Part shown: positions 2,502-61,937 of the stretch, piece by piece
Layout of the letters: every line of letters starts with the position of its first letter
How positions within the stretch are numbered: the first letter of the stretch is position 1
NCBI GenBank assembly: GCA_041666325.1
Contig: JBAYHC010000002.1
Coordinates: 51,635 to 115,634, forward strand
Direction: 5' to 3'
DNA from: Patescibacteria group bacterium
GTDB lineage: Bacteria > Patescibacteriota > UBA1384 > XYA2-FULL-43-10 > 1-14-0-10-43-13
Length of the DNA: 64,000 bases
The notes under the pieces: generated by a model
The model's input: only the letters and a program-made list of their open reading frames with translations
Told to the model about the DNA's origin: nothing
The model's database searches: none
Program-made: the position numbers and the translations under genes

Positions 2502-4030
2502 AGCAAGATAAGCTCGGGAAGAAATTTGTCGTCCCGGTGATTATGCTTGCGCTCTTTTTCTTGGCCCTAAATATTCTCTGGTCTTACCTGGACAAGACTC
2601 CACCGCATTGGGATATGGCCAGGCATCTATCCAATAGTCTTGACTATCATCGGTATTTGATCGATCTTAATTGGCGCAAGCTGATCTTTAATTACTCATA
2701 TTACCCACCCTTTTATTATTGGCTGACTGCCCTGTGGTATTTGGTTGTTGGCAGGTCGATTGATGCTGCAATTTCAACAAATCTGTTCTTTGTTGTAGCA
2801 CTTGCGATCAGTGTTTATTTCAGTGCGAAGAAATTACAAGACGAAAGATCTGCTTGCTTGGCCGCTCTTCTTGCGTTAACCTTTCCGATGCTGTCGAGCC
2901 AATTTAAAGAGTTTCAGCTGGATGCACCGCTGACAGTGATGGTTTCTCTTGGCCTAACGTTTCTCTTGTATAGCGATAATTTTCGCAATAGAAAATCGAT
3001 TGTCTTTCTGGGTATCGTCTCTGGCCTGGCCATGCTTACGAAGTGGACCTACGCTGCTTATGTGCTTGTGCCATTGATTTATCTATTGGCAGAATCATTA
3101 CTTAAATTTCCCAGAGAGAGAATTAGCATTCTGAAAAATGCTCTTATCGCCGCGATTGCTACATCGATTATCGCCGGACCCTGGTACACGCATAATCTGT
3201 CCGACATCAAGCGAGATGTTGACGGAAGCGGTATAAATGCTGCTCTGGCCGAGGGCGATCCGGTCGGCTTGACGTTGAAAGCATTCATGTTTTATTTTTG
3301 GACGTTCATTGAGCATCATTTTTGGCTTATCGGCACTATAATTTTCTTGGTTGGGTTGGTGGTCCTGCTCAGCAATCGCGAATCACGCCGCAAGTATGCG
3401 ATATATCTGATCTCCGTCATTGTCGGTTATATCATCTTTTCGACTTTTCCCAACAAAGATGCCAGATTTATCATGCCGATCGTTCCCTCTGTGGCCATAA
3501 TCATTATCGGTTTCATGTCCCTGTTACCAAAGACTCCAAGAGCATTCCTGGCAGTCTATTTGATTATCTTTGCTTTTTTCACCTTCTTTGAAACCACCTT
3601 CAGCTTGCCATTCACTAAAAGCATCTCATGGCAAACGGAGGGTAAGCACTGGATCAATGTTTATCTGGAGAGGAGCTACACCGTTACGGCGCCAAGCCAA
3701 CTTGATTGGCATTATGACGTAATTGTTTCCAGAGCTAGATCTGACGCAGGCGAGGACAGAACTATTCAGTTTCTGGGACAAGACCGCTCTGAGTTTAATC
3801 GATGGGCTTTGGCATATTACAGCAGGCTTTATGGTATGGAGTGGGTTGGCGAAAATACATCTAGCGTCAATTTCCGCTATCTCGTATTTCGTGAAGCCGG
3901 GGAAAGCTATGCCCAAAAAGAAGAGGAATTGTTTCGAGAGGGGTTTTCCCCTGATGTCATGGGCCAGTGGATTCTTCCAGATGGAACGAGCGCCTACCTG
4001 ATAAAGATAGAAGGGGAGCAAGATGTTTAA
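2441..4030 (+). CDS. GT-C fold glycosyltransferase, PMT_2/ArnT-like (family 39/83-like) membrane protein
   Basis: 529-aa polytopic membrane protein; N-terminal region PPHWDMARHLSNSLDY resembles PMT/ArnT family; likely real start GTG at ~2498 after RBS aggggaagggga (ORF frame opens at 2441). Confidence 0.5.
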   Translation: MDSGGSYRIDADSNRGRGQVKQDKLGKKFVVPVIMLALFFLALNILWSYLDKTPPHWDMARHLSNSLDYHRYLIDLNWRKLIFNYSYYPPFYYWLTALWYLVVGRSIDAAISTNLFFVVALAISVYFSAKKLQDERSACLAALLALTFPMLSSQFKEFQLDAPLTVMVSLGLTFLLYSDNFRNRKSIVFLGIVSGLAMLTKWTYAAYVLVPLIYLLAESLLKFPRERISILKNALIAAIATSIIAGPWYTHNLSDIKRDVDGSGINAALAEGDPVGLTLKAFMFYFWTFIEHHFWLIGTIIFLVGLVVLLSNRESRRKYAIYLISVIVGYIIFSTFPNKDARFIMPIVPSVAIIIIGFMSLLPKTPRAFLAVYLIIFAFFTFFETTFSLPFTKSISWQTEGKHWINVYLERSYTVTAPSQLDWHYDVIVSRARSDAGEDRTIQFLGQDRSEFNRWALAYYSRLYGMEWVGENTSSVNFRYLVFREAGESYAQKEEELFREGFSPDVMGQWILPDGTSAYLIKIEGEQDV

Positions 4031-5219
4031 GCTGGTTATGATTATTCTTATTGCTACTGTTTTTCTTGTGCCTTTTTATTTCTTTCGCTTTGATCTTCTG
4101 GGGGTGCCGACGAATATTTTTGAGGTAGCGATTTTCGCTGCCATCCTGGCGGCGATAGTTGATCTTGTCGCAAAGAAAAGACGTGTAAATTGGGGTGGGA
4201 TCTGGCCATACTTGCTTCTGGTTTCGGTTCTTGTTGGAGCAATAATCTCTGAGGACAAGACCAGAGCCGCTGGTATCGCAAAGGGTTGGTTTATTGCTCC
4301 AATCTTGCTTTATTGGTTAATGATTAACTTTGGCAACAAAAGCTCTATCCGCAAAATCGTCCTCGCGCAATTCTTCGCTATGATTGTGATTGCGCTGTGG
4401 GCAATCTTGCAGCGGTTCGAGGTGGTCGGTTTACTCTTCTACCAAAAGGGCGACCCGTCATTCTTGCAATATCTGGGAGATACGCCTCGGTCGTTCGGAC
4501 CATTTGAATCACCGAATTATCTTGCGATGTATTTGGTGCCAACTATCTTCATATCATTGTCGACACTGACTTTTATCAGGCCTATTGGCCAAAGGTTAAT
4601 TCTGGCTTCCGGACTAATTATAGCTATTATCGCCCTTCTGCTGTCGGGCTCACGGGGTGGTGTGATTGCTCTAGCACTGGCGTTATTGGTGCTCCTTGTA
4701 ATAATTATCGGCCGACGCCTAGGCAAGCAGGCGTCACTATTGATTGCCGCACTGATCGCAGCATTGTCGTTGTTCTCAATCTGGAAGATCGCGCCGGCGC
4801 AGGATCAAGCCAGGATTGAGATCTATGCTTATTCAGTTGAGATGATCCAATCGCACCCTTTTGCAGGTATTGGTCTTGGTAGCTTTAGAGATGAAATTAC
4901 CAAACTTTCTGTGGGTAATCCGACATTTATTGAGCATGGTCTACCATTCGCTCTGCACCCCCACAATCTTTACTTGGCAATATGGCTGAATCTGGGTTTG
5001 TCCGGATTGCTTGTTTTTGGCTTGCTATTGTGGGGGTTTTTAAGAAAAGCCAGATCGGACAATGGTGGAGTAGGGCTGTTTGCGCTTTTGGCAATGGTTG
5101 CGATTTTAGCACACGGTTTGGTTGATACAACTTATTTTAAGAATGATCTTGCTGCCCTATTTTGGTTGATTTATGCAATCCCGTATCTCCCAAGTGAGAA
5201 TGATGAAAACAAGTTTTAA
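4023..5219 (+). CDS. O-antigen ligase / Wzy_C family membrane protein (paralog 2)
   Basis: 398 aa, multi-TM, motif LSGSRGGVIALALALLVLL typical of Wzy_C loop region; 4-bp overlap with upstream gene. Confidence 0.6.
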   Translation: MFKLVMIILIATVFLVPFYFFRFDLLGVPTNIFEVAIFAAILAAIVDLVAKKRRVNWGGIWPYLLLVSVLVGAIISEDKTRAAGIAKGWFIAPILLYWLMINFGNKSSIRKIVLAQFFAMIVIALWAILQRFEVVGLLFYQKGDPSFLQYLGDTPRSFGPFESPNYLAMYLVPTIFISLSTLTFIRPIGQRLILASGLIIAIIALLLSGSRGGVIALALALLVLLVIIIGRRLGKQASLLIAALIAALSLFSIWKIAPAQDQARIEIYAYSVEMIQSHPFAGIGLGSFRDEITKLSVGNPTFIEHGLPFALHPHNLYLAIWLNLGLSGLLVFGLLLWGFLRKARSDNGGVGLFALLAMVAILAHGLVDTTYFKNDLAALFWLIYAIPYLPSENDENKF

Positions 5220-7873: not shown

Positions 7874-7913
7874 AAAAAAGACCGGCGGCACCCCAAGAAG
7901 GGGGCGCCACCGG
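7874..7913 (-). terminator. Rho-independent terminator of high-GC lipoprotein gene
   Basis: minus strand: CCGGTGGCGCCCC-cttctt-GGGGTGCCGCCGG followed by TCTTTTTTATTT; immediately downstream of stop at 7939. Confidence 0.7.
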
Positions 7914-7938
7914 CGTGTGTAATCGAACGTGCCAGGAT

Positions 7939-8889
7939 CTACCTGGCGGTGTGAACCTGCATCGGCAGGTGCGGCGGGTCCGCGCTGGCGTTTACCGGCT
8001 GGACCTGCAGCCCGCGTGCGCGGGTGATGACCCGCACCTGGCGGCGGAAGTGGTCATCGGTCCCGACCGTGCCCCACCACAGGTAGACGCCATTGGAGGC
8101 GAACTTCCAGCGGCGGGGCTGGTCCGTGCCTGTCACGGGCGTGGGCTGGGGCAGCGTGCCGCCGACGGGGGTAAAGGCGTACTGGACGCCCTCGGTTACC
8201 TCCGCGTTGGCGGCATCGTAGACCTTGGGCAGGATCTCCTGACCGTTGCCGGCGAGACACTGGTCGCCGAAGAGCGAGAGCTCGTCCGGCGTGGTGTCCT
8301 CCGGATCGTAGCTCCAGAGCTTGAGCAGGTGGGGGCTGACCCGCACCTTGCACGTCAGCTCGAACCTGGCGAAGCGCAGCCCCGAGGCTTCGGTCGGCTT
8401 CACGCCGACGATCAGGTCGTACGTGCCCGCCGCCGGCTTGTAGATGCCCGGGGCGGCCGGTGTGACAACTGTCGTGCCCGAGCTTGTGACCAGCCGGTAA
8501 TCCAAGATGAACTTGTCACTTGGCTGCCCACCGGCAGTTATGTCCTCGATCCAGCTTGCCAGCCACTCGTCTTTGCAGGCCCAGCGGTTGGTGGCGTTGG
8601 CACCCTCGAGCTCGACCCACTTGCCATTGGGGTCGGCGTTGGAGCTGCCGACCCAGAACGGCACTGTCAGCCGATAGATGCGCGTCTCCGGCTCGAGCCG
8701 GAATGAGTTGGCGTTCCGGTCGATGACCGGAGTCACGGTCGTGCCACCCGGCGGGGGCGGGTTGGTGCCGCCACCGGATGACGAACCGTTCCCGTTGGTG
8801 TTGGAGTTGTCGAGGACCGTTCCGCCTCCGCCCCCACAACCGCCAACACCGATACCAGCACACAACACTACCAGCAAAAGGTACCTCAT
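7939..8889 (-). CDS. High-GC (~67%) secreted lipoprotein, unknown function (foreign-composition islet 1)
   Basis: 316 aa; N-terminus MRYLLLVVLCAGIGVGGCGGG = signal peptide with Cys lipobox and Gly/Ser/Pro-rich linker; GC far above flanks; RBS gaaaggaaggga before ATG. Confidence 0.6.
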   Translation of the reverse strand: MRYLLLVVLCAGIGVGGCGGGGGTVLDNSNTNGNGSSSGGGTNPPPPGGTTVTPVIDRNANSFRLEPETRIYRLTVPFWVGSSNADPNGKWVELEGANATNRWACKDEWLASWIEDITAGGQPSDKFILDYRLVTSSGTTVVTPAAPGIYKPAAGTYDLIVGVKPTEASGLRFARFELTCKVRVSPHLLKLWSYDPEDTTPDELSLFGDQCLAGNGQEILPKVYDAANAEVTEGVQYAFTPVGGTLPQPTPVTGTDQPRRWKFASNGVYLWWGTVGTDDHFRRQVRVITRARGLQVQPVNASADPPHLPMQVHTAR

Positions 8890-9051
8890 GATGTGTCCCT
8901 TCCTTTCGTTACGTTTGGATGCTCCTGAACGGGCGGTGAAGTATGTGCTTTTTGCGAATTCCGGCGCCGGTGGAAGCCTCGAGAGGCAGGGCTGGCGTGG
9001 GCGGCTGAAGCAAAAAGGACATACGAGCCAGTGTAAGTAACGTAACTAGCT

Positions 9052-25815: not shown

Positions 25816-26130
25816 TAGCTATCCTAATCAGTTTTTATTATGTCATTCCCGCGGAGGCGGGAATCTATTCAATATTTCGTCTCACTCTACCACAAACCAC
25901 GCCTGATGTCGAACGGTCCACCGGTTGAGGTGTGTCAAGTGTCGAGGAACGACTCCCAAAATCCTTATTGTCAAAATTTAGCTAGAAAGTGAGATGTCCC
26001 CAAGGCTACCCGATTTAAACAATTCGACTATATTTCACGCGCAATATTGAACGTAATAATTGCTGTGGGTTAGGCCTTGTCAAAAAACAGGAGCCAGCGT
26101 AAGCACTGTCTCTTCGTGCAGTGTCCGAGG

Positions 26131-37677: not shown

Positions 37678-37756
37678 TGTCATTCCAGCCTGGGGCTAGA
37701 GAGCTGGAATACAGGCTATTGTTTCTGGATCCCAAATCAAGTTTGGGATGACACAA
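37678..37756. mobile_element. MITE-like palindromic element copy 1 (solo)
   Basis: TGTCATTCCAGCCTGG...GAGAGCTGGAAT...TGGATCCCAAATCAAGTTTGGGATGACACAA; terminal inverted repeats TGTCATYCCAG / CTGGRATGACA. Confidence 0.55.
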
Positions 37757-37966
37757 TTATTTTACACTCACATTGTATCTTATTTACGACAATATGTCAA
37801 TATCTAGATACGATGAGGAAAAAATATCAAGAAAATGTGTATCAGCTAATTGACATAATCAATTAATTCTGTTAAAATAGTGCGTTGCAGAGTTGGAAAC
37901 GGCTTTGCAAAGAACCGGCGCAATCACGTGTCAGACAAAACGTCTACAGTTGAAAGGGAGAATCAA

Positions 37967-38512
37967 ATGACTGAGAAGACATACACCGAGAAGATGGACG
38001 ATCTGGCGTATGAGATCTTCAGTCTCATCCTAACAGCGCAAGCACGACTTTGTCTGCACGAGGCCGATCAAATAGCTGGAATGCAGGTTCCGTGCGGCAA
38101 GGGAACAGCGACTGGGGACATAAGTTGGAGAGAAAATGAGCCTTACTGTGAGGTAAGGTTTCGTCATCAGATTCGGACTGGGAGTTGCAGCGTTATTATC
38201 CGCATCGGGGGGAGTCCAAAGGACGTCCATTGGTCTGCGAGCTATTCCGAGCGGACTAAAACGGGTGAATTTATCCGCCAATATATAGAGTACGATGCGG
38301 TTTCGTGTGAGCTCCGGGGCTATAAGACTGGCCGGCTGGCAGAAGAACCTGGCGCCTGGCTCGATGACTCACGGAATGACGATGATGTGCACTGGCGGAC
38401 CACCTTCTGCCCGGAGGCGGAACAGCGGGCTTTACATGACTTAGAGGCCATCTTGGATGACCTTAAAGCCAAGAGAGGACAGTGGGTCATACAGCGTCTG
38501 GCGACGATGTGA
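37967..38512 (+). CDS. Hypothetical protein (181 aa), GC ~55%
   Basis: Start ATG after RBS aaagggag; no motif. Confidence 0.4.
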   Translation: MTEKTYTEKMDDLAYEIFSLILTAQARLCLHEADQIAGMQVPCGKGTATGDISWRENEPYCEVRFRHQIRTGSCSVIIRIGGSPKDVHWSASYSERTKTGEFIRQYIEYDAVSCELRGYKTGRLAEEPGAWLDDSRNDDDVHWRTTFCPEAEQRALHDLEAILDDLKAKRGQWVIQRLATM

Positions 38513-38610
38513 GTACGTCTTCAACCTTCAGACCGTCCCGATAGCCGCTTTGGCGGCTATCGGGGCTAACTGAGGGGTGAAAGCGTGTTCTCGGAAAGGG
38601 GAAAGTGTGA

Positions 38611-39347
38611 TGGGAATCTTCATTAAAGCCCATGATGGGCTGATCGAGTTTCGATTTCTGGTTGATAAGGAGTGGGAGGAGAGTGTAAGACGGTTTCGGT
38701 CCAGCCAGCTGGAGTTTGATTTCCTGGCTGGTGGGAGTTCGTGGAAGAAAGTGGTGGTTGGAGCAGAAGGGAAGGTGGAGATCGTTTTTAGAAAGGCGAT
38801 CGATTGGCACCGAATAATGGAATTACCCAAAGCGTTGCATGATCTGCCTGCCTATGTACAGTATGGGCTGCTTAGCAGTGCCCTTTTGTACGATCTGATG
38901 CCTCACAGCCTAGCTGAATGGGAAGGGACATATTTTCTGTTTAGACAGAACAATGGTCGGGTGGCGGTCAAGCACAATGGCATCGTGGAGCGACTTCCTG
39001 ATTGGGAGAGAGACGAGCGCGAGGAGGAGTTAGGGCGAGAGAGCTTGATGCGGAAAGCTCGCCAGAAGCGTGAAGATCGGCTGGAAAGAAAGCAGAGACG
39101 GAGACAGAAGAAACAACTGCCACAACCGCCAGTGCGTCTTGCCGCCTCCGGAGATCAGATCTGGGGTGGCGGAACAACGAAAGGCAAAACACAACTTCTA
39201 CGCAAGTTCTGCTGGCTGGTTGTCGGGGTGAATGGTGTCTGGCACATGGGGAACCTGATTTTCTCCTGGCCGGATTCACCGCGATGGCTAGCCTATCTCT
39301 CCTTACTAATGTTCTGTTACCTCTTTCTGCACCGAAAGAGGACCTGA
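38611..39347 (+). CDS. Hypothetical protein with Arg/Glu-rich coiled segment and C-terminal hydrophobic helices, GC ~55%
   Basis: Start ATG after RBS aaagggga; perfect 10-bp hairpin CGATAGCCGC-tttg-GCGGCTATCG in upstream spacer. Confidence 0.4.
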
Positions 39348-39446
39348 GCACGGCTAAGGGTGAGATCCGACGCCTCGACCTGGCAAACGCCGGGGCGGGG
39401 CTTTTCGTATTTAGTATGCGCTGCTACAATGTCCTAGTAATGTGAC

Positions 39447-39560
39447 TGTCATCCCAGCCTGCAGGCCTGAAAGGTACCCTCTGGGTCTTGAGAGCTGGGA
39501 TCCAGAAATTAGTTTCCGGGAATTTATCACTGGATTCCAGGTCAAGCCTGGAATGACACA
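39447..39560. mobile_element. MITE-like palindromic element copy 2 (left flank of GIY-YIG gene)
   Basis: TGTCATCCCAGCCTGCAGG...CTTGAGAGCTGGGATCCAG...CCTGGAATGACACA. Confidence 0.55.
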
Positions 39561-39564
39561 GAAG

Positions 39565-39855
39565 ATGAAATCCTATTATATTTACATTCTTGCTAGCAAG
39601 CGCAATGGCACTTTGTATATTGGTGTTACGTCTGATTTGGTTAAACGGATTTGGGAGCATAAAAATAAAGTGGTTAAGGGTTTCACCAGCGAATACAATG
39701 TTTCGTTGCTGGAATATTATGAAGAAACGAGTGATGTGAGAAGTGCTATCAAAAGAGAAAAACAGTTGAAAGCGCGGAGACGAGAATGGAAACTAGAATT
39801 AATTGAGAAAGAAAATCCTGAGTGGAAAGATTTGTATCAGGATTTACTATCTTGA
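39565..39855 (+). CDS. GIY-YIG nuclease family protein (stand-alone, 96 aa)
   Basis: MKSYYIYILASKRNGTLYIGVTSDLVKRIWEHK = canonical GIY-YIG motif; ORF frame extends upstream into repeat but first ATG is 39565. Confidence 0.8.
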   Translation: MKSYYIYILASKRNGTLYIGVTSDLVKRIWEHKNKVVKGFTSEYNVSLLEYYEETSDVRSAIKREKQLKARRREWKLELIEKENPEWKDLYQDLLS

Positions 39856-39937
39856 CTGGATCTTAAATCAAGTTCAGGATGACGCTAAAGCGTCAACTAG
39901 ATCCCAGCTCTCAAGCTGACAGGCTGGGATGACACAA
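39856..39937. mobile_element. MITE-like palindromic element copy 3 (right flank of GIY-YIG gene, inverted relative to copy 2)
   Basis: CTGGATCTTAAATCAAGTTCAGGATGAC...CTAGATCCCAGCTCTCAAGCTGACAGGCTGGGATGACACAA; CAGGCTGGGATGACA is reverse complement of copy-2 start. Confidence 0.5.
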
Positions 39938-39977
39938 TGGTGTTAATTGGATACTAAATCAATGTAATTACTATTTA

Positions 39978-40032
39978 TGGATCCCGTATTAAGACCCACC
40001 GAGGGTCCCCTTTGTGGGGTACGGGATGACAA
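39978..40032. repeat. Partial member of same repeat family (TGGATCCC-hairpin-GGGATGACAA)
   Basis: TGGATCCCGTATTAAGACCCACCGAGGGTCCCCTTTGTGGGGTACGGGATGACAA; shares ends with tail module of copy 1. Confidence 0.4.
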
Positions 40033-40036
40033 GGGA

Positions 40037-41989
40037 ATGAATGACCTATTAGACAATTTAAATCCCCCTCAAAGAGAGGCCGTGCTCACAACCGAAGGCC
40101 CCGTGCTCGTCCTCGCCGGGGCTGGCTCAGGGAAAACCAAGGCCTTGACGCATCGAATTGCTTATTTGATTAAAGAAAAGCATGTTTCGACGTATAATCT
40201 TCTGGCTGTGACCTTTACTAACAAAGCGGCGGGGGAGATGGCAAGCCGCGTTAGTGATCTGTTGACCGGCCAATCTTATGGTGGTGAGATTGTGAGGCTG
40301 CCTTGGCTTGGGACCTTCCACTCTATCTGTGTTCGAATCCTTCGCCGGGAGTCGAACCACATTGGCTATGATCGCGGCTTTACTATCTATGATGACGGCG
40401 ACCAGCTCTCGATTATCAAGCGTATCATGAAAGATCTCAATATTGACCCCAAGCACTATGCGCCGCAAGCGATTCGTTCATTTATCTCAGGGGCAAAGAA
40501 CGAATTTATCAATGCCCAAGAGTACAAGAAATATAATAATTCTCCCTTCGAAGTCGTGACATCCAAGGTTTACGAGCGCTACGAGAAGTACTTGAGGGAG
40601 GTGAACGCGATGGATTTTGACGATCTCCTGGTGAATTGCGTCAGGCTCTTTGATGAAAATCCACAAGTGCTGGAGCGCTATCAGGATCAGTTCAAGTATA
40701 TTCTTGTCGATGAGTATCAGGACACCAACCATGTTCAGTATTTGTGGGTTAAGATGTTGGCGGCCAAGCATGGGAACATAATGGTGGTGGGGGACGATTC
40801 ACAGTCAATTTACGGCTGGCGTGGAGCCAATTTCCGCAACATCCTGAACTTCGAAAAGCACTATCCGTCTGCCCAAGTGATTAAATTGGAACAAAACTAT
40901 CGTTCTACCCAGGTTATCCTTGAGGCAGCCAACGAGGTAATTAGATACAATCGTCAGCGTACAGACAAGAAGCTCTGGACCAAGAATCAGCGCGGTTTAC
41001 CAATTTCGATCTATGAGGCGCTCAACGAGAAGGACGAATCTGAGTTCATTGCTCTCGAGATTGCGTCACTCGCCAGAACCAAGGGACAAGACGAAGAAAA
41101 AAAGTACTCTGACTTTGCCGTTCTTTATCGGACCAATGCTCAGTCCCGTGCTGTTGAAGAGGCCTTCTTGCGCTTCAATATTCCTTATCGAGTCGTTGGT
41201 GGTATGCGCTTTTACGAGCGCAAAGAAATTAAAGATATCGTTGCCTATCTGCGCGTAATTGCAAACCCGCGTGATTTTGAGGCTTTTGAGAGGGTTGTTG
41301 CGACTCCATCGCGGGGAATAGGCGAGAAAACACTCACTCAAATACGGCAGATTCCTAATTTTCAACTATCAGTCACCAATCAGACGCCGAATTTAGAATT
41401 TTCCATCCCTGGCAAGATTGTTGATTTTTTGGGTATCCTCGATGAAATGAGAGAGTATGCCAAGGATTCTGGCCTGCCTCAATTAATTGAACATATTGCT
41501 GTGAAGTCTGGTTACCGCCAGCATCTTCTGGATGGTACCCCGGAGGGCGAGGGAAGATGGGAAAACGTGATGGAACTGATGACTGTTGCCGAGTCGGTCC
41601 AGAAATCACGCGAGAGCGATGACACTGACAGCCATCTTTCTGATCTGGAGCGTTTTATTGAAAGAGTAATGTTGGCTCAGGACGTAGATGAATATGATAA
41701 GGATAACAATGTTGTAACGTTGATGACACTTCACTCCGCAAAGGGCCTCGAGTTTCGAGTTGTGTTTATTGTTGGCGTCGAGGAGGGACTTTTCCCTCAC
41801 ACTCGGGCATTGGCTGACGAGAGTGAGATGGAGGAGGAGCGCAGGCTTTGTTATGTTGGTATTACTCGTGCAAGGGAGCGGCTTTATCTTTTGTATGCCT
41901 CCGAACGCGTGATCTATGGTCGGTTCCAGTCTAATCCCAAATCTAGATTCATCGAGTGCTTGCCGGACAACCTTATTGACAAAGTATAG
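40037..41989 (+). CDS. uvrD: ATP-dependent DNA helicase UvrD/PcrA family
   Basis: Walker A VLVLAGAGSGKTKALTHRIAYLI, motif TFHS, DEYQDTN, C-terminal helicase domain; start at MNDLLDNL. Confidence 0.9.
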   Translation: MNDLLDNLNPPQREAVLTTEGPVLVLAGAGSGKTKALTHRIAYLIKEKHVSTYNLLAVTFTNKAAGEMASRVSDLLTGQSYGGEIVRLPWLGTFHSICVRILRRESNHIGYDRGFTIYDDGDQLSIIKRIMKDLNIDPKHYAPQAIRSFISGAKNEFINAQEYKKYNNSPFEVVTSKVYERYEKYLREVNAMDFDDLLVNCVRLFDENPQVLERYQDQFKYILVDEYQDTNHVQYLWVKMLAAKHGNIMVVGDDSQSIYGWRGANFRNILNFEKHYPSAQVIKLEQNYRSTQVILEAANEVIRYNRQRTDKKLWTKNQRGLPISIYEALNEKDESEFIALEIASLARTKGQDEEKKYSDFAVLYRTNAQSRAVEEAFLRFNIPYRVVGGMRFYERKEIKDIVAYLRVIANPRDFEAFERVVATPSRGIGEKTLTQIRQIPNFQLSVTNQTPNLEFSIPGKIVDFLGILDEMREYAKDSGLPQLIEHIAVKSGYRQHLLDGTPEGEGRWENVMELMTVAESVQKSRESDDTDSHLSDLERFIERVMLAQDVDEYDKDNNVVTLMTLHSAKGLEFRVVFIVGVEEGLFPHTRALADESEMEEERRLCYVGITRARERLYLLYASERVIYGRFQSNPKSRFIECLPDNLIDKV

Positions 41990-50900: not shown

Positions 50901-51224
50901 GGGGAGAGTGTAACAACTCAGAGTTGGGAACAGTAGACCGGAAAATCCTCTTGGTGAATACACAAAGTGAGTCTGCGAGTAGATTGGTCTCTTTTGATGA
51001 AGCGATCGGTCGGGCAGAGAACAGCATCACCTTCACTCAGTGAGCGCTGATTGAAAACGTACTCCGGAAACGTATAGGTTTCCCAGGGCAAGCCCAATAT
51101 CCTTTGCCCTTTCTTGGTCTGGGCGCCAACTGTTCCAAGGTAGAAGGCAGATGACGAATTTGCCGGTGTTTTCATCTCAGTAATGTTTATATCACAATCG
51201 ATATATCTAGTCAACGGAAAACCA

Positions 51225-51253
51225 TTGACAAATTAAGCAATTTATGGTAGTAT
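51225..51253 (+). promoter_or_regulatory. Sigma70-like promoter TTGACA-17-TAGTAT for islet-2 lipoprotein
   Basis: TTGACAaattaagcaatttatggTAGTAT. Confidence 0.55.
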
Positions 51254-51307
51254 CTGCGCATCGTCAATCGGGGCATTGGGCCACATTCAGTGAAGGAGGA
51301 AACGGCT

Positions 51308-52108
51308 GTGAAGAGAACATTGTGCGGATTGATGCTTGGTTTCGCTCTGGTGGCGCAGGGGTGCGGTGGCGGGAGCAACAGCCCCGTGGTACCTGCCGCG
51401 ACCGAAGGACGCTTCTTGGTCGCCTTCGAGCAGTACGACGCGCAGATCAGCGACCACGTCACCCCGGTGATTGAGAGCGGTGTCGAGTTCCGTATCGACA
51501 TCGCCGGCCTGTCATCGCCGCGGTCACGGGGAGGGATCGATCCCTCATCTGCCACCTATCGCTGGCTCAAGGATGGCCGGCCGTTCGATCCGGGCATTGT
51601 CGTGACGGCGGGTCAGGAGCGGCGTGGTTGGATGATCGGAATCCCCAACCGGCACGAGGACTTTGGTGACACGGCCTTCCAGGTCGTGGCCGAGATCACC
51701 GACCAGGGGCAGACCTTCATCGCCCGCCGGACCTTCTTCGTCCGGCCCTGGTCCACGGTCAAACCGGCAGCACCGATTCTGCAGACGGATGCCTTCTCGG
51801 GTGACCCGGCCAGGTCGCGCTATTACAACGAGGTCGGGGGCTATTACGTCGGCATTCTGGACGCGAGGATCGACATCCTCAACGGCGGTGGCGCCGAGGG
51901 CGCGCGCGAGGCCAAGGGGCGTGGCCCCGGCGGATCGTACTGGGAGGTATCCACCAATGGCACTCGCTTGCCGCTTACACCAAGCAGGCCGGGCTGGTGG
52001 ACGGTGTCGCTGGTGAGCCCCGGGGGTTACGTTTCCCGGCCGGCTTGGCTCTGGGTCTACGACCCGGCCAACCCGGGGGCAACCCCGCCCGCCCGCCCGG
52101 ATTGGTAG
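51308..52108 (+). CDS. High-GC (~66%) secreted lipoprotein, unknown function (foreign-composition islet 2)
   Basis: GTG start after RBS GAAGGAGG (8-nt spacer); VKRTLCGLMLGFALVAQGCGGGSNS signal peptide with Cys lipobox; alternative GTG at 51290. Confidence 0.6.
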   Translation: MKRTLCGLMLGFALVAQGCGGGSNSPVVPAATEGRFLVAFEQYDAQISDHVTPVIESGVEFRIDIAGLSSPRSRGGIDPSSATYRWLKDGRPFDPGIVVTAGQERRGWMIGIPNRHEDFGDTAFQVVAEITDQGQTFIARRTFFVRPWSTVKPAAPILQTDAFSGDPARSRYYNEVGGYYVGILDARIDILNGGGAEGAREAKGRGPGGSYWEVSTNGTRLPLTPSRPGWWTVSLVSPGGYVSRPAWLWVYDPANPGATPPARPDW

Positions 52109-54712: not shown

Positions 54713-55501
54713 ATGTTTATTGATACCCATTGCCATCTAAATTTTCCAGAGTTCAAGAATGAGATCTCGGCCGTAATCGGCCGAGCTGTTGATGCTGGTG
54801 TTAACAGAATGGTAAATGTTGGTATTGACCTTGACACGTCGAAACGCTCACTTGAGCTTGCTCGTCGTTATCCTGAAGTCTACGCTACGGTCGGCATTCA
54901 CCCCCATTGCTCTCCGGACTTAAGTATCGAGACCTGGAGCGACTTGTCTGTTCTGGCGGCCCATCCCAAGGTTGTGGCGATTGGTGAAATTGGCCTTGAC
55001 TACTATTACCTCAAACGATCTTCCCGCTATGCCGACTCCCCTTCTCGTGAAGATCAAATCTTTTGTTTTGAGCGCATGCTTGATCTTGCTTTGGAGACAA
55101 AACTCCCGGTTATAATTCACAGTCGCGAGGCTGACGCGGACATGCTGGGGATACTTAAGAGCTATAGCGGTTCGCTACGCGGTGTTTTTCATTGTTTCTC
55201 TGGCGATACGTACTTTGCCGAGAAGGTGCTCGATCTTGGTTTCGCGATCTCTTTTACTGGAAACATCACATATAAAAAATCAGTTGATACCTGTGAGGCC
55301 ATCGAGCGGATTCCTCTGGGCTCGATCATGATTGAGACAGACGCTCCGTATTTAGCGCCTGAGCCATTTCGGGGCCAGCGCAATGAGCCTGCTCATGTGG
55401 TAGATGTAGCGCAGAAGATAGCCGAAATCAAGAAATTAAGCCTGGCTGAGGTTGAGCGAGAGACGACTAAAAAGGCAAAGAAACTATTTGGTATTGAGTA
55501 A
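54713..55501 (+). CDS. tatD: TatD-family metal-dependent hydrolase/DNase
   Basis: MFIDTHCHLNF, VAIGEIGLDYYY, IIHSREA, FHCFSGD, ETDAPYL motifs. Confidence 0.88.
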   Translation: MFIDTHCHLNFPEFKNEISAVIGRAVDAGVNRMVNVGIDLDTSKRSLELARRYPEVYATVGIHPHCSPDLSIETWSDLSVLAAHPKVVAIGEIGLDYYYLKRSSRYADSPSREDQIFCFERMLDLALETKLPVIIHSREADADMLGILKSYSGSLRGVFHCFSGDTYFAEKVLDLGFAISFTGNITYKKSVDTCEAIERIPLGSIMIETDAPYLAPEPFRGQRNEPAHVVDVAQKIAEIKKLSLAEVERETTKKAKKLFGIE

Positions 55502-55525
55502 TTAGCACTAATCTGTTCATTGGCA

Positions 55526-55571
55526 TTGACAAAATGCCTTTTTTGTGCTATACTCGCGAAGTTATCGCGAG
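55526..55571 (+). promoter_or_regulatory. Consensus promoter TTGACA-17-TATACT plus +1 hairpin CTCGCGA-agtta-TCGCGAG for islet-3 operon
   Basis: TTGACAaaatgccttttttgtgcTATACTcgcgaagttatcgcgag. Confidence 0.65.
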
Positions 55572-55599
55572 CGTGTGATAACTCTGAAGGGGGAAGATC

Positions 55600-55788
55600 G
55601 TGTTAAAAGTCATGTTGACTATCATCGCCGGTTGGGCGGTGTTCGGCTTTTCGGTTTGGTTCTTTGTCACCAACAAGACGTGGGACATCGGGGGCAACCA
55701 GCTCCTCGCCACGATAATGTTGGCTGCAGCAGGGATACTGCTTGTCATCTTCGGCATCATCGCACTGATCGAAAGGAGACGCCGGTGA
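55600..55788 (+). CDS. Holin-like small membrane protein (62 aa, 2 TM, C-terminal ERRRR), high GC
   Basis: GTG start after RBS gaagggggaag; MLKVMLTIIAGWAVFGFSVWFFVTNKTWDIGGNQLLATIMLAAAGILLVIFGIIALIERRRR; stop TGA overlaps GTG of next gene (GTGA). Confidence 0.45.
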   Translation: MLKVMLTIIAGWAVFGFSVWFFVTNKTWDIGGNQLLATIMLAAAGILLVIFGIIALIERRRR

Positions 55789-56906
55789 GAGGCATTCTGT
55801 GGAAGACGTTCGTTGGATTGTTTGTGTGGCTTGGCGGCAAATTGCCTGGGTGGAAGAAGTCTGCCCGGCAGCAGTACCGCCGTCACGGGGGTGTTATCCG
55901 GGGTTTGGGGTACGCTGCAATCGGTCTGGTTCTTCTGTCTCTGGCCAGTCACTACTTCGGTGATGACCATAAGCAGATGACCAAGAAGTCACACAAGCCG
56001 GGCAGGGTGGCCACACGGCCCGATCACCCGACGAAGCCGGAGTGGCAGACTTCGACGCCAAAGAAGCCGAATCGTACGTGGCGGGAACGGGGTCTGACGA
56101 CGGCGCAATTGCGCCAGATCTACCGCCACCCGCGGGTCCAGCAGGGGCCGCACGGTCCTGAGCTGGTGGGGCAGACCAAGCCCCACCCCAACCCGTGGAA
56201 GCCGACGTCGCGCGGGTTGCTCAGTGGCCTAATCGTCGTCGTCGACCCAGGTCACGGCGGCGTGGATCCCGGCAGCTCCTTCGAGCATGCCGGCGCCGGC
56301 TTCTGGGAATCGGCCTACACATACAGGGCCGCCTACGAGCTCATGCAGCTTCTGCGGGCCAAGGGGGCTACAGTCCACCTGACCTGTTGGAGTGACGTCA
56401 TGACTTTGCCGGAACCGCCGCGGGCCGCTGTCCCCATGCCGCTGCCACGTGACGCCCGAACTATTCGCGAAGGTCTGGCTGTCAGATTGTCGACGCGGGT
56501 GCTCAACGCCCGTATCGACTACGCCGATGACTTGGCTAAGCGGTACGGGGGAAAGAGGGTCCTTTTTGTCTCGCTCCATACTGATTGGGAGAGGCAGGGG
56601 CTTTCCGGCGCTTTCGTCTGCATCAACCCCGGCGAGCCGGCTCCGCTCCTGGCCACGTGCATCGCGGCCGAGCTGGAGCGGAAGAACTACCGCCGGCGCG
56701 ACAACGGCAAGCCGCGTTCCTGCGTCGTGCCTCAGGCGAAGAAGTATGTGCTCTTCGCCGGCAAGACGCCGCAGCGGGTCATCGTCGAGATGGCGACGAC
56801 CACGGCGCCGGCTGACGGCTTCCGTATTCGCTGGGAGCGCAACCGGATGGATCTCCTGAAGACCATCCTGGCGGGGATCGAGAGCTATGCCGCGGAGACG
56901 TGGTGA
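55785..56906 (+). CDS. N-acetylmuramoyl-L-alanine amidase (Amidase_3 family) with N-terminal TM anchor and basic Pro-rich linker, high GC (~63%)
   Basis: GTG start after RBS AAGGAG; catalytic-domain motifs VVVDPGHGGVDPGS, FWESAY, LFVSLHTD; TM segment GLGYAAIGLVLLSLASHYF. Confidence 0.7.
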   Translation: MRGILWKTFVGLFVWLGGKLPGWKKSARQQYRRHGGVIRGLGYAAIGLVLLSLASHYFGDDHKQMTKKSHKPGRVATRPDHPTKPEWQTSTPKKPNRTWRERGLTTAQLRQIYRHPRVQQGPHGPELVGQTKPHPNPWKPTSRGLLSGLIVVVDPGHGGVDPGSSFEHAGAGFWESAYTYRAAYELMQLLRAKGATVHLTCWSDVMTLPEPPRAAVPMPLPRDARTIREGLAVRLSTRVLNARIDYADDLAKRYGGKRVLFVSLHTDWERQGLSGAFVCINPGEPAPLLATCIAAELERKNYRRRDNGKPRSCVVPQAKKYVLFAGKTPQRVIVEMATTTAPADGFRIRWERNRMDLLKTILAGIESYAAETW

Positions 56907-57102
56907 TGAAAGGAGAGATGTTCGTCAAATCCAGGGCCGGCCCTTGCCATGCGCGAGGCCGGCCCGAATTGTTTCGATACGATCTTTGATGTAACATTGC
57001 CTTGCCGGCACGACCAGTGTTGGCAAGCACAGTGTTTCAGAGAGGGGGATCAATCTTTGAGAAGAGAAGAAAAATCGGATCGTCTGCGAAGACGGCATGA
57101 GA

Positions 57103-58061
57103 TAATGGGTTTTCTTGTGCTTTGCACTCTGATTCTACCATTGCTTTTGGTTGTTAGATGGTTCTGGTTGAATATCAAGCAAAGCGAAAAACGTTTGCCA
57201 TCATCTGGGAGCAGAGCTCAGTCCTTGTCCTCTGCCTGGTTACGCTCATTTACGATTCCAATCGAGTGCCACAAACATCTTGATCAGCACATTGTTTCCA
57301 ACGGGCGAGTTCCGGATCTTGGCGAGCGTATGGGCAAAGTGGATAAGCTCAAAAAACTGATCGACCAGCTTTGCGCAGAGAGAGGAATCAGCCCGGAATT
57401 GGCTTATGGTCTTATTCTCCATGAGTCGCATGGCGACGTGTGGAGTGTTGATTTCAAGACCAAGCTCGGCCAGGTTCCGGTGACGCAAGCTCATGTTGGG
57501 CTGGGCCAACTGAGTCAAGATTTTCTGCCGGAAGCGATGCGGGTGGATCCAGCTCGCTTGCGTGCTGCTGACGCGTGGCAGAGGGCGACACTCGATCGCA
57601 TTGCCCGCAAGCAGTGGCCGCCGACTGCGGCGGAACGTGTTTTGCTTAGCAAGTGGGCAGCCCTCGATTTGCGCTTCAATGCCAGATGGAATCTAGAGAA
57701 AACGCTTGATTATGTCAAGCAAAATCTCGAGATAACAGGCAATGAAACACTCGCTATCCTGGCACATTTGCGAGGAACTCGCTATCCATTGTGGTGGGTG
57801 GCGCGTTATCGCTTTGACCATGAACGAGTGCCTTACAACGAGGCTGACCGAATTCGACTTCATCGAACAACTGCGCCATATGTTAAGTCTGAGGGCATTG
57901 ACCTTTTTGACCTGATCGTTGACACGGGAGCCGAGGGCTCTCGCTATCGCAGCGATCGCAAGGCCCAAGTTTATTGCTTTTCTATCCTTGCTTGGAGTGA
58001 GCTATATGCTCGCCATCGCAAAACACTTCGTCCGCCCCGATTCAACGGGGCGGCTTTTTAA
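57103..58061 (+). CDS. Putative lytic-transglycosylase-like (SLT-like) protein with N-terminal TM; hypothetical
   Basis: GLILHESHGD...AHVGLGQLSQDF loosely matches SLT E-S...GLMQ pattern but spacing atypical; start at MGFLVLCTLILPLLLVV. Confidence 0.3.
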
Positions 58062-58104
58062 AACTTGAAGTTACGAGGCTAGTTTGCTACGCTACACATA
58101 TCAA

Positions 58105-61851: not shown

Positions 61852-61937
61852 GCTCGGGTGGTGGAATGGTAGACACGCTAGCCTTAGGAGCTAGTGGGGT
61901 AAAACCCGTGGAGGTTCAAGTCCTCTCCCGAGCACCA
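61852..61937 (+). tRNA. tRNA-Leu (anticodon UAG), type II with long variable arm, encoded CCA
   Basis: Acceptor GCTCGGG/CCCGAGC, anticodon stem CTAGC-CTTAGGA-GCTAG (UAG at 34-36), variable arm TGGGGTAAAACCCGTG, T-loop GGAGGTTCAAGTCCTCT, 3' ACCA. Confidence 0.85.

Follow-up and report, generated by a model that had tools for sequence, protein, structure and literature searches.

A probable ssn-SRM module in a Patescibacteria genome: a single-domain GIY-YIG nuclease gene amid oriented hairpin repeats

What kind of genetic unit is formed by the palindromic repeats that crowd around a small GIY-YIG nuclease gene in a Patescibacteria genome? The repeats lie at 37678-40032 of a stretch of contig JBAYHC010000002.1 (Patescibacteria group bacterium, assembly GCA_041666325.1). 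This stretch, 64 kb read out of a 264-kb contig, is called the window here, and all in-window counts refer to it. A preliminary description had taken the repeats for a family resembling miniature inverted-repeat transposable elements (MITEs), bracketing the nuclease gene and two further genes. Our analysis indicates that the locus is instead an ssn-SRM module, that is, an Ssn-family GIY-YIG nuclease amid its cognate hairpin repeats, a reading to which we assign a probability of roughly 0.85. It adds an unannotated case from the Patescibacteria (Candidate Phyla Radiation, CPR) to the Ssn/SRM system already known, and does not constitute a novel type of mobile element.

The Ssn/SRM system was defined by Chenal et al. 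(Nat Commun 2025, PMC11893778). SsnA of Neisseria meningitidis is a 94-aa single-domain GIY-YIG protein of CDD family cd10448 and a nuclease specific for single-stranded DNA (ssDNA) (PMC11893778). Its target is the repeat CGTCATTCCCGCGMAVGCGGGAATCYRG, named NTS in Neisseria and Ssn-related motif (SRM) generally; the NTS hairpin is bound as ssDNA only and on one strand only, cleavage falls a few nt to the 5′ side of this repeat, and RNA is not bound (PMC11893778). The GTC before the palindrome weighs most for cleavage and the C after it most for binding, the loop is dispensable, and mutating Y6, Y17 and E64 abolishes cleavage (PMC11893778). In most genomes ssn-family genes are flanked by SRM repeats, and in N. 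meningitidis the SsnA/NTS pair modulates the integration of transforming DNA (PMC11893778).

The stand-alone nuclease gene of the preliminary description was found as stated, at 39565-39855 on the forward strand. It has 35.7% GC and encodes 96 aa with PF01541 as the sole Pfam domain (E = 3.5e-15, residues 2-74); there was no second domain and no Y1_Tnp match. The protein therefore falls within the size class set for Ssn proteins, a single GIY-YIG domain of ≤150 aa. An identical protein in a Patescibacteria metagenome-assembled genome (MAG) carries the annotation "GIY-YIG nuclease family protein" only. A PDB sequence search gave no match at E ≤ 0.1, and an NCBIfam search gave only a sub-threshold match to a group I intron endonuclease. 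Homologs numbered at least 7,989 at E ≤ 1e-5, the nearest non-identical ones among the matches listed being 72-76% identical.

Comparison with SsnA of Neisseria gonorrhoeae placed the window protein in the Ssn family. The two were 58% identical in a gapless alignment covering 90 of 94 aa (pairwise BLASTP, E = 5e-39, 112 bits), which lies within the limits set for family membership (BLASTP E < 1e-10 and at least 75% query coverage to SsnA), with the N. gonorrhoeae ortholog serving as proxy. A tblastn search of PLSDB (7.3 Gb) with the window protein returned the N. gonorrhoeae locus at 57.8% identity, 96% coverage and E = 6e-28. As a control, Escherichia coli YhbQ, from another small GIY-YIG subfamily (cd10456-type), was only 27% identical to the window protein (30 bits). 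Residues Y7, Y18 and E65 of the window protein aligned with the catalytic Y6, Y17 and E64 of SsnA and were invariant in 15 homologs. At the N. gonorrhoeae locus (NZ_CP119142.1; L007), the open reading frame (ORF) was flanked by seven exact NTS repeats, with a sense(+)/sense(-) NTS doublet immediately upstream of ssnA, as in the window, and its numbering reproduced the published Y6, Y17, E64 and 94 aa. The ssnA frame there (L007 1474-1773) has no ATG, GTG or TTG from the upstream stop to about residue 15; to fit the published residue numbering, translation would have to begin at an ATT at L007:1489, unless the strain carries a defect. Two complete N. gonorrhoeae chromosomes are filed in PLSDB as plasmids.

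Scanning for hairpins beside GAC/GTC defined the repeat unit as one oriented hairpin, 5′-YGTC-ATYCCnnn-loop-nnnGGRAT-C(C/T)A-3′. Eight such units occur in the window, U1-U7 inside 2.35 kb around the nuclease gene and U8 as a solo unit; seven of the eight lie ≤1.9 kb from ssn, and five of these ≤180 bp from it. The four copies or partial copies of the preliminary description are all present at the coordinates given for them. The true unit is shorter, however: copies 1, 2 and 3 are the unit pairs U1+U2, U3+U4 and U5+U6, and U8 had been missed. The TGTCATYCC…GGRATGACA ends, which look like terminal inverted repeats, come from a pair of hairpin units in opposite orientation. Seven instances of the conserved end GGRATGACA were counted in the window, where 1.1 would be expected, and none of 100 dinucleotide shuffles gave as many; for the module TGGATYY…RGRATGAC the count was four (0.09 expected). 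Copies 1 and 2 form homologous direct repeats, with 65/78 nt of copy 1 identical and two insertions in copy 2. Copies 2 and 3 face each other across the gene as had been proposed, through inverted arms at 39447-39473/39908-39934 (27 nt, 81% complementary) and 39487-39505/39897-39915 (19 nt, 95% complementary).

The features that mutagenesis had marked as functional determinants of the SRM/NTS repeat were largely kept in the window. GTC stood 5′ of the stem in 8/8 units, an ATYCC stem base was present in 7/8 (U5 has ATCCT), and C directly followed the stem in 7/8 (U1 has A). Stem sequences varied yet remained complementary (CCAGC, CCAAA, CCAGG, CCGTA, CCCGC). When folded as ssDNA, seven of the eight formed the predicted 8-bp stem, with z between -1.5 and -3.9. 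A covariance model derived from hairpins of this kind at related loci matched six of the eight at E ≤ 8e-4, the next match in the 64 kb having E = 0.8, and revealed no copies beyond the eight units and no further doublets; the two units with very long loops were recovered solely by the explicit hairpin scan. The modular hairpin family that had been suspected is thereby borne out, as oriented units with differing stems and loops.

The gene itself is enclosed by two pairs of units. On its 5′ side, the outer left hairpin is U3 (39447-39505, sense +; TGTC-ATCCCAGC-(35-nt loop)-GCTGGGAT-CCAG), which was found by the hairpin scans, has a predicted 8-bp stem as ssDNA (-12.0 kcal/mol, z = -1.5) and has U6 as its inverted-repeat partner. 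The pentaloop unit U4 (39530-39558, sense -; TGTC-ATTCCAGG-CTTGA-CCTGGAAT-CCAG) follows, 7 nt upstream of the ssn start codon; it scored 38.0 bits (E = 4e-7) with the covariance model, whose alignment includes its sequence, and folded at -7.4 kcal/mol (z = -2.6). On the 3′ side, 1 nt past the ssn stop codon, lies the decayed pentaloop unit U5 (39856-39884, sense -; CGTC-ATCCTGAA-CTTGA-TTTAAGAT-CCAG), which was still matched by the model (24.6 bits, E = 8e-4) and has lost ssDNA folding (z = 0.08). The outer right hairpin, U6 (39897-39934, sense -; TGTC-ATCCCAGC-(14-nt loop)-GCTGGGAT-CTAG), scored 26.9 bits (E = 2e-4) from outside the training alignment and folded at -8.5 kcal/mol (z = -2.9).

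The remaining units lie farther out. U1 (37678-37714, sense +; TGTC-ATTCCAGC-(13-nt loop)-GCTGGAAT-ACAG), in which A replaces the binding-critical C, was outside the training alignment and scored 26.4 bits (E = 3e-4), with a fold of -9.3 kcal/mol (z = -2.1). With U2 (37725-37753, sense -; TGTC-ATCCCAAA-CTTGA-TTTGGGAT-CCAG; 34.7 bits, E = 3e-6) it forms a gene-less convergent doublet. U2 is identical to a Saccharibacteria hairpin (L009:3969-3989) located 12 nt upstream of that genome's ssn homolog. U7 (39977-40031, sense -; TGTC-ATCCCGTA-(31-nt branched loop)-TACGGGAT-CCAT) was found by the hairpin scans, folds at -12.5 kcal/mol (z = -2.3) and stops 5 nt short of the probable uvrD start at 40037. 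The solo unit U8 (25841-25868, sense +; TGTC-ATTCCCGC-GGAG-GCGGGAAT-CTAT) sits 12 kb from the main cluster, 26 bp upstream of the start codon of ychF, which is on the minus strand. It is of near-canonical NTS type, differing from the NTS consensus at about three positions, and gave the best covariance-model match (39.1 bits, E = 2e-7; in the training alignment) and a fold of -8.9 kcal/mol (z = -3.9).

Whether such hairpins accompany the gene elsewhere was answered by a survey of 80 homolog loci from named genomes, retrieved via homolog alignment at 57-73% identity and drawn from CPR groups, Legionella, Nitrospirota, Cyanobacteria, Bacteroidota, Chloroflexota and others. Every perfect hairpin of ≥7 bp was tabulated by its preceding trinucleotide. 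Up to 400 bp from the gene, hairpins preceded by GTC had a density of 3.74 per kb, compared with 0.23 per kb farther away, a 16-fold enrichment. The mirror prefix TGG behaved likewise (3.73 vs 0.31 per kb), whereas the next best of the 64 trinucleotides reached 0.71 per kb. At least one near-gene GTC-hairpin was present in 69/80 loci, and hairpins on both sides in 53/80. The proposed functional tie between repeats and GIY-YIG gene is thus upheld across phyla, and it corresponds to the published Ssn/SRM pairing.

The 237 distinct near-gene GTC-hairpins shared the flanks seen in the window. The stem was followed by C in 227/237 and by CCA in 209/237, and it started with ATTCC in 171 and ATCCC in 31 (together 202/237), while 50 different 8-nt arms were present. 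Loops were GNRA-like tetraloops, the CTTGA pentaloop or long insertions. Among 88 aligned units, pairs 1-2 were invariant and 4-5 nearly so, and pairs 3, 6 and 7 covaried on both sides; only this pattern of variation is informative, since pairing itself was the detector's selection criterion. Orientation was also biased. Upstream units were sense on the coding strand in 72 cases and opposite in 30 (n = 102), and downstream units were sense on the opposite strand in 98 and on the coding strand in 37 (n = 135), so that the GTC ends face outward from ssn homologs.

Several observations were made at individual loci that carry ssn homologs. On a Planktothrix agardhii plasmid (NZ_LR882964.1, L008 1495-1779), a 57%-identical ssn homolog has a type IIL MmeI-like restriction-modification gene on one side and DISARM drmA on the other, a defence-island context. 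On a Rhizobium tumorigenes plasmid (L094, ~3465-3495), the hairpin CTC-ATTCCTGTG…CACAGGAAT-CCAG downstream of the ssn homolog has CTC in place of GTC and may be a specificity variant. The Thermodesulfobacteriota chromosome OZ245366.1 carries two ssn copies 124 kb apart (L039 ~3700-5060, L043 ~3330-5020), each lying in long tandem arrays of ~110-140-bp units on both sides that resemble NIME/BIME mosaics; because the copies are embedded in these arrays, no clean element ends can be read there.

The published SRM pattern, HGTCWYN(0-2)YYVSBRHN(0-5)WNVSBRGN(0-2)RNCYNB (PMC11893778), is narrower than the family it targets. It recovered 89/237 of the surveyed hairpins (38%), comprising 72/110 with tetraloops, 2/38 with pentaloops and 0/47 with long loops. 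In the window, 7/8 units fail the pattern because of their CTTGA pentaloops or 13-35-nt loops and their CCAGC, CCAAA, CCAGG or CCGTA stems. These units belong to the loop classes that the pattern misses and are ordinary for this clade. Surveys based on the pattern would therefore undercount the system.

Some observations weigh against assigning the locus to Ssn/SRM, and they are set out together here. The SsnA comparator was the N. gonorrhoeae ortholog translated from L007:1489-1770, not CAX49033.1 itself. The published pattern matched a single unit out of the eight, with its register shifted (40001-40031), plus a chance site at 8230, so that of the SRMs looked for by this pattern within 500 bp on each side of the gene, at least one per side, none was matched on the 5′ side. 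U1 lacks the critical 3′ C, and U5 is unable to fold. Finally, several distinct stem sequences surround the one ssn gene, while changing the palindrome with the hairpin kept abolished the activity of N. meningitidis SsnA (PMC11893778); not all units need therefore be substrates of the window protein.

With these points taken into account, the Ssn/SRM reading suggests how the module might work. An SRM unit is an oriented, imperfect palindrome whose fixed parts are the GTC 5′ of the stem, the AT-YCC stem base and the C 3′ of the stem, leaving the inner stem and loop free. The window protein would be expected to bind the folded hairpin in ssDNA only, on the strand 5′-GTCAT…ATC-3′ only, and then to cleave a few nt 5′ of it; such cleavage at the window locus is predicted from homology with four biochemically characterised Ssn enzymes. 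As the GTC ends of U3 and U6 face outward, the predicted cuts fall just outside the gene, one per strand. The most likely role would be that seen in N. meningitidis, namely the cutting of SRM-containing ssDNA such as incoming transforming DNA, which would alter how readily repeat-adjacent DNA recombines. In the window host, the module would then modulate recombination of SRM-containing ssDNA. The copies first described are unit doublets comparable to the NIME mosaics of Neisseria or the BIME mosaics of enterobacteria.

The alternative closest to the MITE interpretation is that SRM(+)-ssn-SRM(-) is an active element resembling an insertion sequence (IS), excised or copied via its ssDNA hairpin ends or homing into SRMs, with the doublets as MITE- or REPIN-like derivatives and the GC-rich genes as captured cargo. 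We consider this unlikely, though it is compatible with the Ssn reading, since the identity of the system would be the same and only its biology would differ. Its appeal lies in the IS-like layout with outward GTC ends, in the gene-less convergent doublets of the window (U1/U2) and of N. gonorrhoeae, in the occurrence of 57-73%-identical homologs in very distant phyla and unrelated contexts, and in the several copies and large arrays of some genomes; the Ssn authors themselves raise the analogy with IS elements and REP/RAYT for mobility (PMC11893778). Set against this, there was no target-site duplication in the 10-nt flanks of any unit, doublet or composite. Apart from the one solo unit outside the cluster, the 64 kb held no dispersed near-identical copies, and the local units are mutually diverged, not recent, with U5 decayed. 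The two genes proposed as cargo are not associated with ssn or SRMs elsewhere, as judged from the one relative of ORF2. The only demonstrated activity of Ssn is cleavage (PMC11893778). More broadly, GIY-YIG enzymes are nucleases, and none is known to have strand-transfer activity.

Comparison of related assemblies bears on the same alternative. All other assemblies with the ssn or cargo proteins (L001-L006) were 100% identical to the window; they therefore represent the same strain and offer no empty site. The nearest uvrD relatives (L089-L092, n = 4; 66-71% identical) share the arrangement of the genes that follow uvrD (G5/DUF348, RrnaAD, Nramp, TP_methylase) and have no ssn upstream of uvrD, as would be expected of an insertion, and the slot upstream of uvrD is variable. 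Unrelated genes occupy that slot in all four, so the insertion boundaries cannot be read. Two of these relatives carry repeats with no ssn nearby: within the RrnaAD (ksgA) gene call of one (L092 11930-11991) lies an SRM-like convergent doublet, and the G5-RrnaAD spacer of the other (L090 4540-4606) has a long hairpin with GTCAT on both strands. Among Rhizobium plasmids there was no clean filled/empty pair: eight close plasmids all carry ssn, and in more distant ones the similarity ends just before ssn and the right flank differs. The MITE interpretation is thus not supported: target-site duplications, an empty site and, in the 64 kb, extra copies were all missing, and the local copies are diverged. 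Transposition of the window unit is unproven, and its mobilisation or homing by the nuclease is hypothetical. The bolder version, in which a bare GIY-YIG ssDNA nuclease drives SRM(+)-ssn-SRM(-) as a selfish element that is active and belongs to a novel class of transposons or homing elements, with gene-less doublets as non-autonomous derivatives, appears slightly more doubtful again. If it were true, genes between doublets, such as the two orphan ORFs described below, could be mobilised or preferentially exchanged, and streamlined CPR genomes would gain a hairpin-guided route to foreign genes.

Readings that dispense with the nuclease fare worse. The hairpins might act as RNA, as terminators, attenuators or mRNA-stabilising REP-like stem-loops, their proximity to the gene being incidental. 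They are intergenic and at gene ends, U1/U2 would lie in a 5′ leader if a promoter-like site at 37800-37772 is real, and the decayed U5 pairs once G·U is allowed. We nevertheless regard this as very improbable: the units have no T-tracts, a single weak terminator-like call overlaps a unit, no Rfam family matches the hairpins (the Rfam matches in the window, under gathering and E-value cut-offs, being a tRNA at 61852 and two at chance level), and the units occur in both orientations relative to transcription. An RNA role would also leave the asymmetric GTC/C flanks and the prefix-specific enrichment near ssn homologs unexplained, and SsnA does not bind RNA, as noted above. The suggestion that a short palindromic segment was merely duplicated locally, without any wider family, draws on the crowding of 7/8 units into 2.35 kb and on the direct repetition of copies 1 and 2. 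It is refuted by the near-canonical U8 at 12 kb distance, by the U2-identical hairpin in Saccharibacteria, another phylum-level lineage, and by the same unit type flanking homologs in 69/80 loci, and we give it next to no weight.

We return to the Ssn/SRM reading and to the genes that adjoin the module. The 1.7-kb, ~55% GC two-gene segment of the preliminary description corresponds to the 1,691 bp between the doublets (37756-39446, forward strand). It does hold two ORFs, but its coding part has 52.8% GC and follows a leader of 28% GC; the window mean is 47.2% and that of ssn 35.7%. Both ORFs are orphans on the forward strand, ORF1 (37967-38512) of 181 aa and ORF2 (38610-39350) of 245 aa, with no Pfam or NCBIfam matches. 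No homolog of ORF1 was found among 5.8 billion proteins. ORF2 had one relative, 39% identical, among 1.84 billion representatives; it sits on a 1.6-kb contig that contains no ssn gene and no SRM hairpins. The two orphan genes just happen to sit between two doublets, and no connection between them and the Ssn system could be detected. Divergent sigma-70-like promoter matches, 11 of 12 positions each, occur in the 28% GC stretch at 37772-37800 (minus strand) and 37850-37878 (plus strand); if the former is genuine, the 5′ leader of a trmB-like regulator gene contains the U1/U2 doublet. Between ORF1 and ORF2, a 34-nt imperfect inverted repeat (38515-38586, 76% complementary, core CCCGATAGCCGC-tttg-GCGGCTATCGGGG) resembles an internal terminator or attenuator.

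Three further GC-rich islands occur in the window, at 7900-8900, 51200-52100 and 55500-58100 (60-65% GC against the 47% mean). Encoded there are orphan proteins of lipoprotein-like or secreted type (316 aa, from the minus strand, and 272 aa) and a 453-aa Amidase_3 protein, whose gene precedes that of a 370-aa orphan. The idea that they too are SRM-flanked was rejected, there being no hairpins near any of the three, and they look like foreign insertions unrelated to SRM. GC-rich foreign genes are therefore common here independently of the repeats.

The repeats also appear to have affected gene calling. The NCBI model of uvrD starts at 40037 (650 aa), while the longest ORF, of 670 aa, begins at an ATG at 39977. 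The fourth copy of the preliminary description, U7, accordingly overlaps the 5′ end of the longest ORF, as had been stated, but is intergenic by the NCBI start. Similarly, the JGI call of the nuclease (P0003) has 137 aa compared with 96 aa in the NCBI call, the extension spanning 39442-39564. The 5′ extensions of uvrD (20 codons) and of the nuclease are translations of SRM hairpins, yielding peptides such as VIPACRP… and …GVRDDK. Such extensions are probably a recurrent annotation artefact wherever the repeats occur.

With the assignment proposed here, an anonymous "GIY-YIG nuclease family protein" and its repeats are relabelled as an Ssn/SRM module in a Patescibacteria genome. The system was described only in 2025, and its biochemistry is limited to homologs from Neisseria and Wolbachia; for tools that cut ssDNA, every diverged Ssn/hairpin pair represents a candidate new specificity. 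It is commonly assumed that CPR bacteria depend on taking up DNA. From that general background it may be speculated that a locus-marking ssDNA nuclease could affect gene exchange in the group.

The locus can be compared with several known systems. YhbQ (UPF0213) differs in its low identity to the window protein, given above, and flanking hairpin repeats have not been described for it. Free-standing GIY-YIG homing endonucleases such as I-TevI and the phage Seg proteins have the same catalytic domain, but they possess extra DNA-binding domains and cut double-stranded DNA, whereas the window protein is a bare domain. IS200/IS605 elements and MITEs share the hairpin-forming, ssDNA-acting ends that bracket a gene, and the short gene-less derivatives; the window locus differs in that no Y1 transposase, TnpB, target-site duplication or conserved target motif was found.

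Closer likenesses are found among extragenic palindromes. REP/BIME-RAYT systems and REPINs are likewise built from extragenic palindromes that are short and oriented, carry a conserved non-palindromic tail and are arranged in inverted doublets, and in REP/RAYT the repeats flank a single gene, the product of which recognises these repeats in the form of ssDNA hairpins. The window protein, however, is a GIY-YIG protein and not an HUH/Y1 transposase, the tail is GTC where that of REP is GTAG, and no evidence of REP/RAYT-type strand transfer or dissemination was obtained at the window locus. The dRS3/NIME repeats of Neisseria contain ATTCCC-N8-GGGAAT palindromes, which are the NTS core, and form intergenic mosaics that bracket variable genes, much like the doublet-cargo-doublet arrangement seen here. 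dRS3 is also a phage integration target, of which there was no evidence in the window, and the window stems and loops are more variable.

The Ssn/NTS system itself provides the closest match. The window differs in its host, a CPR MAG, and in copy number, with eight units in 64 kb against hundreds of repeats in pathogenic Neisseria. In both, a single-domain GIY-YIG protein of ~95 aa with conserved Y/Y/E residues is encoded between hairpins of the form GTC + ATYCC…GGRAT + 3′ C, present on both sides of the gene. A convergent doublet lies right upstream of the gene in the window as in N. gonorrhoeae, and U8 is almost the NTS consensus.

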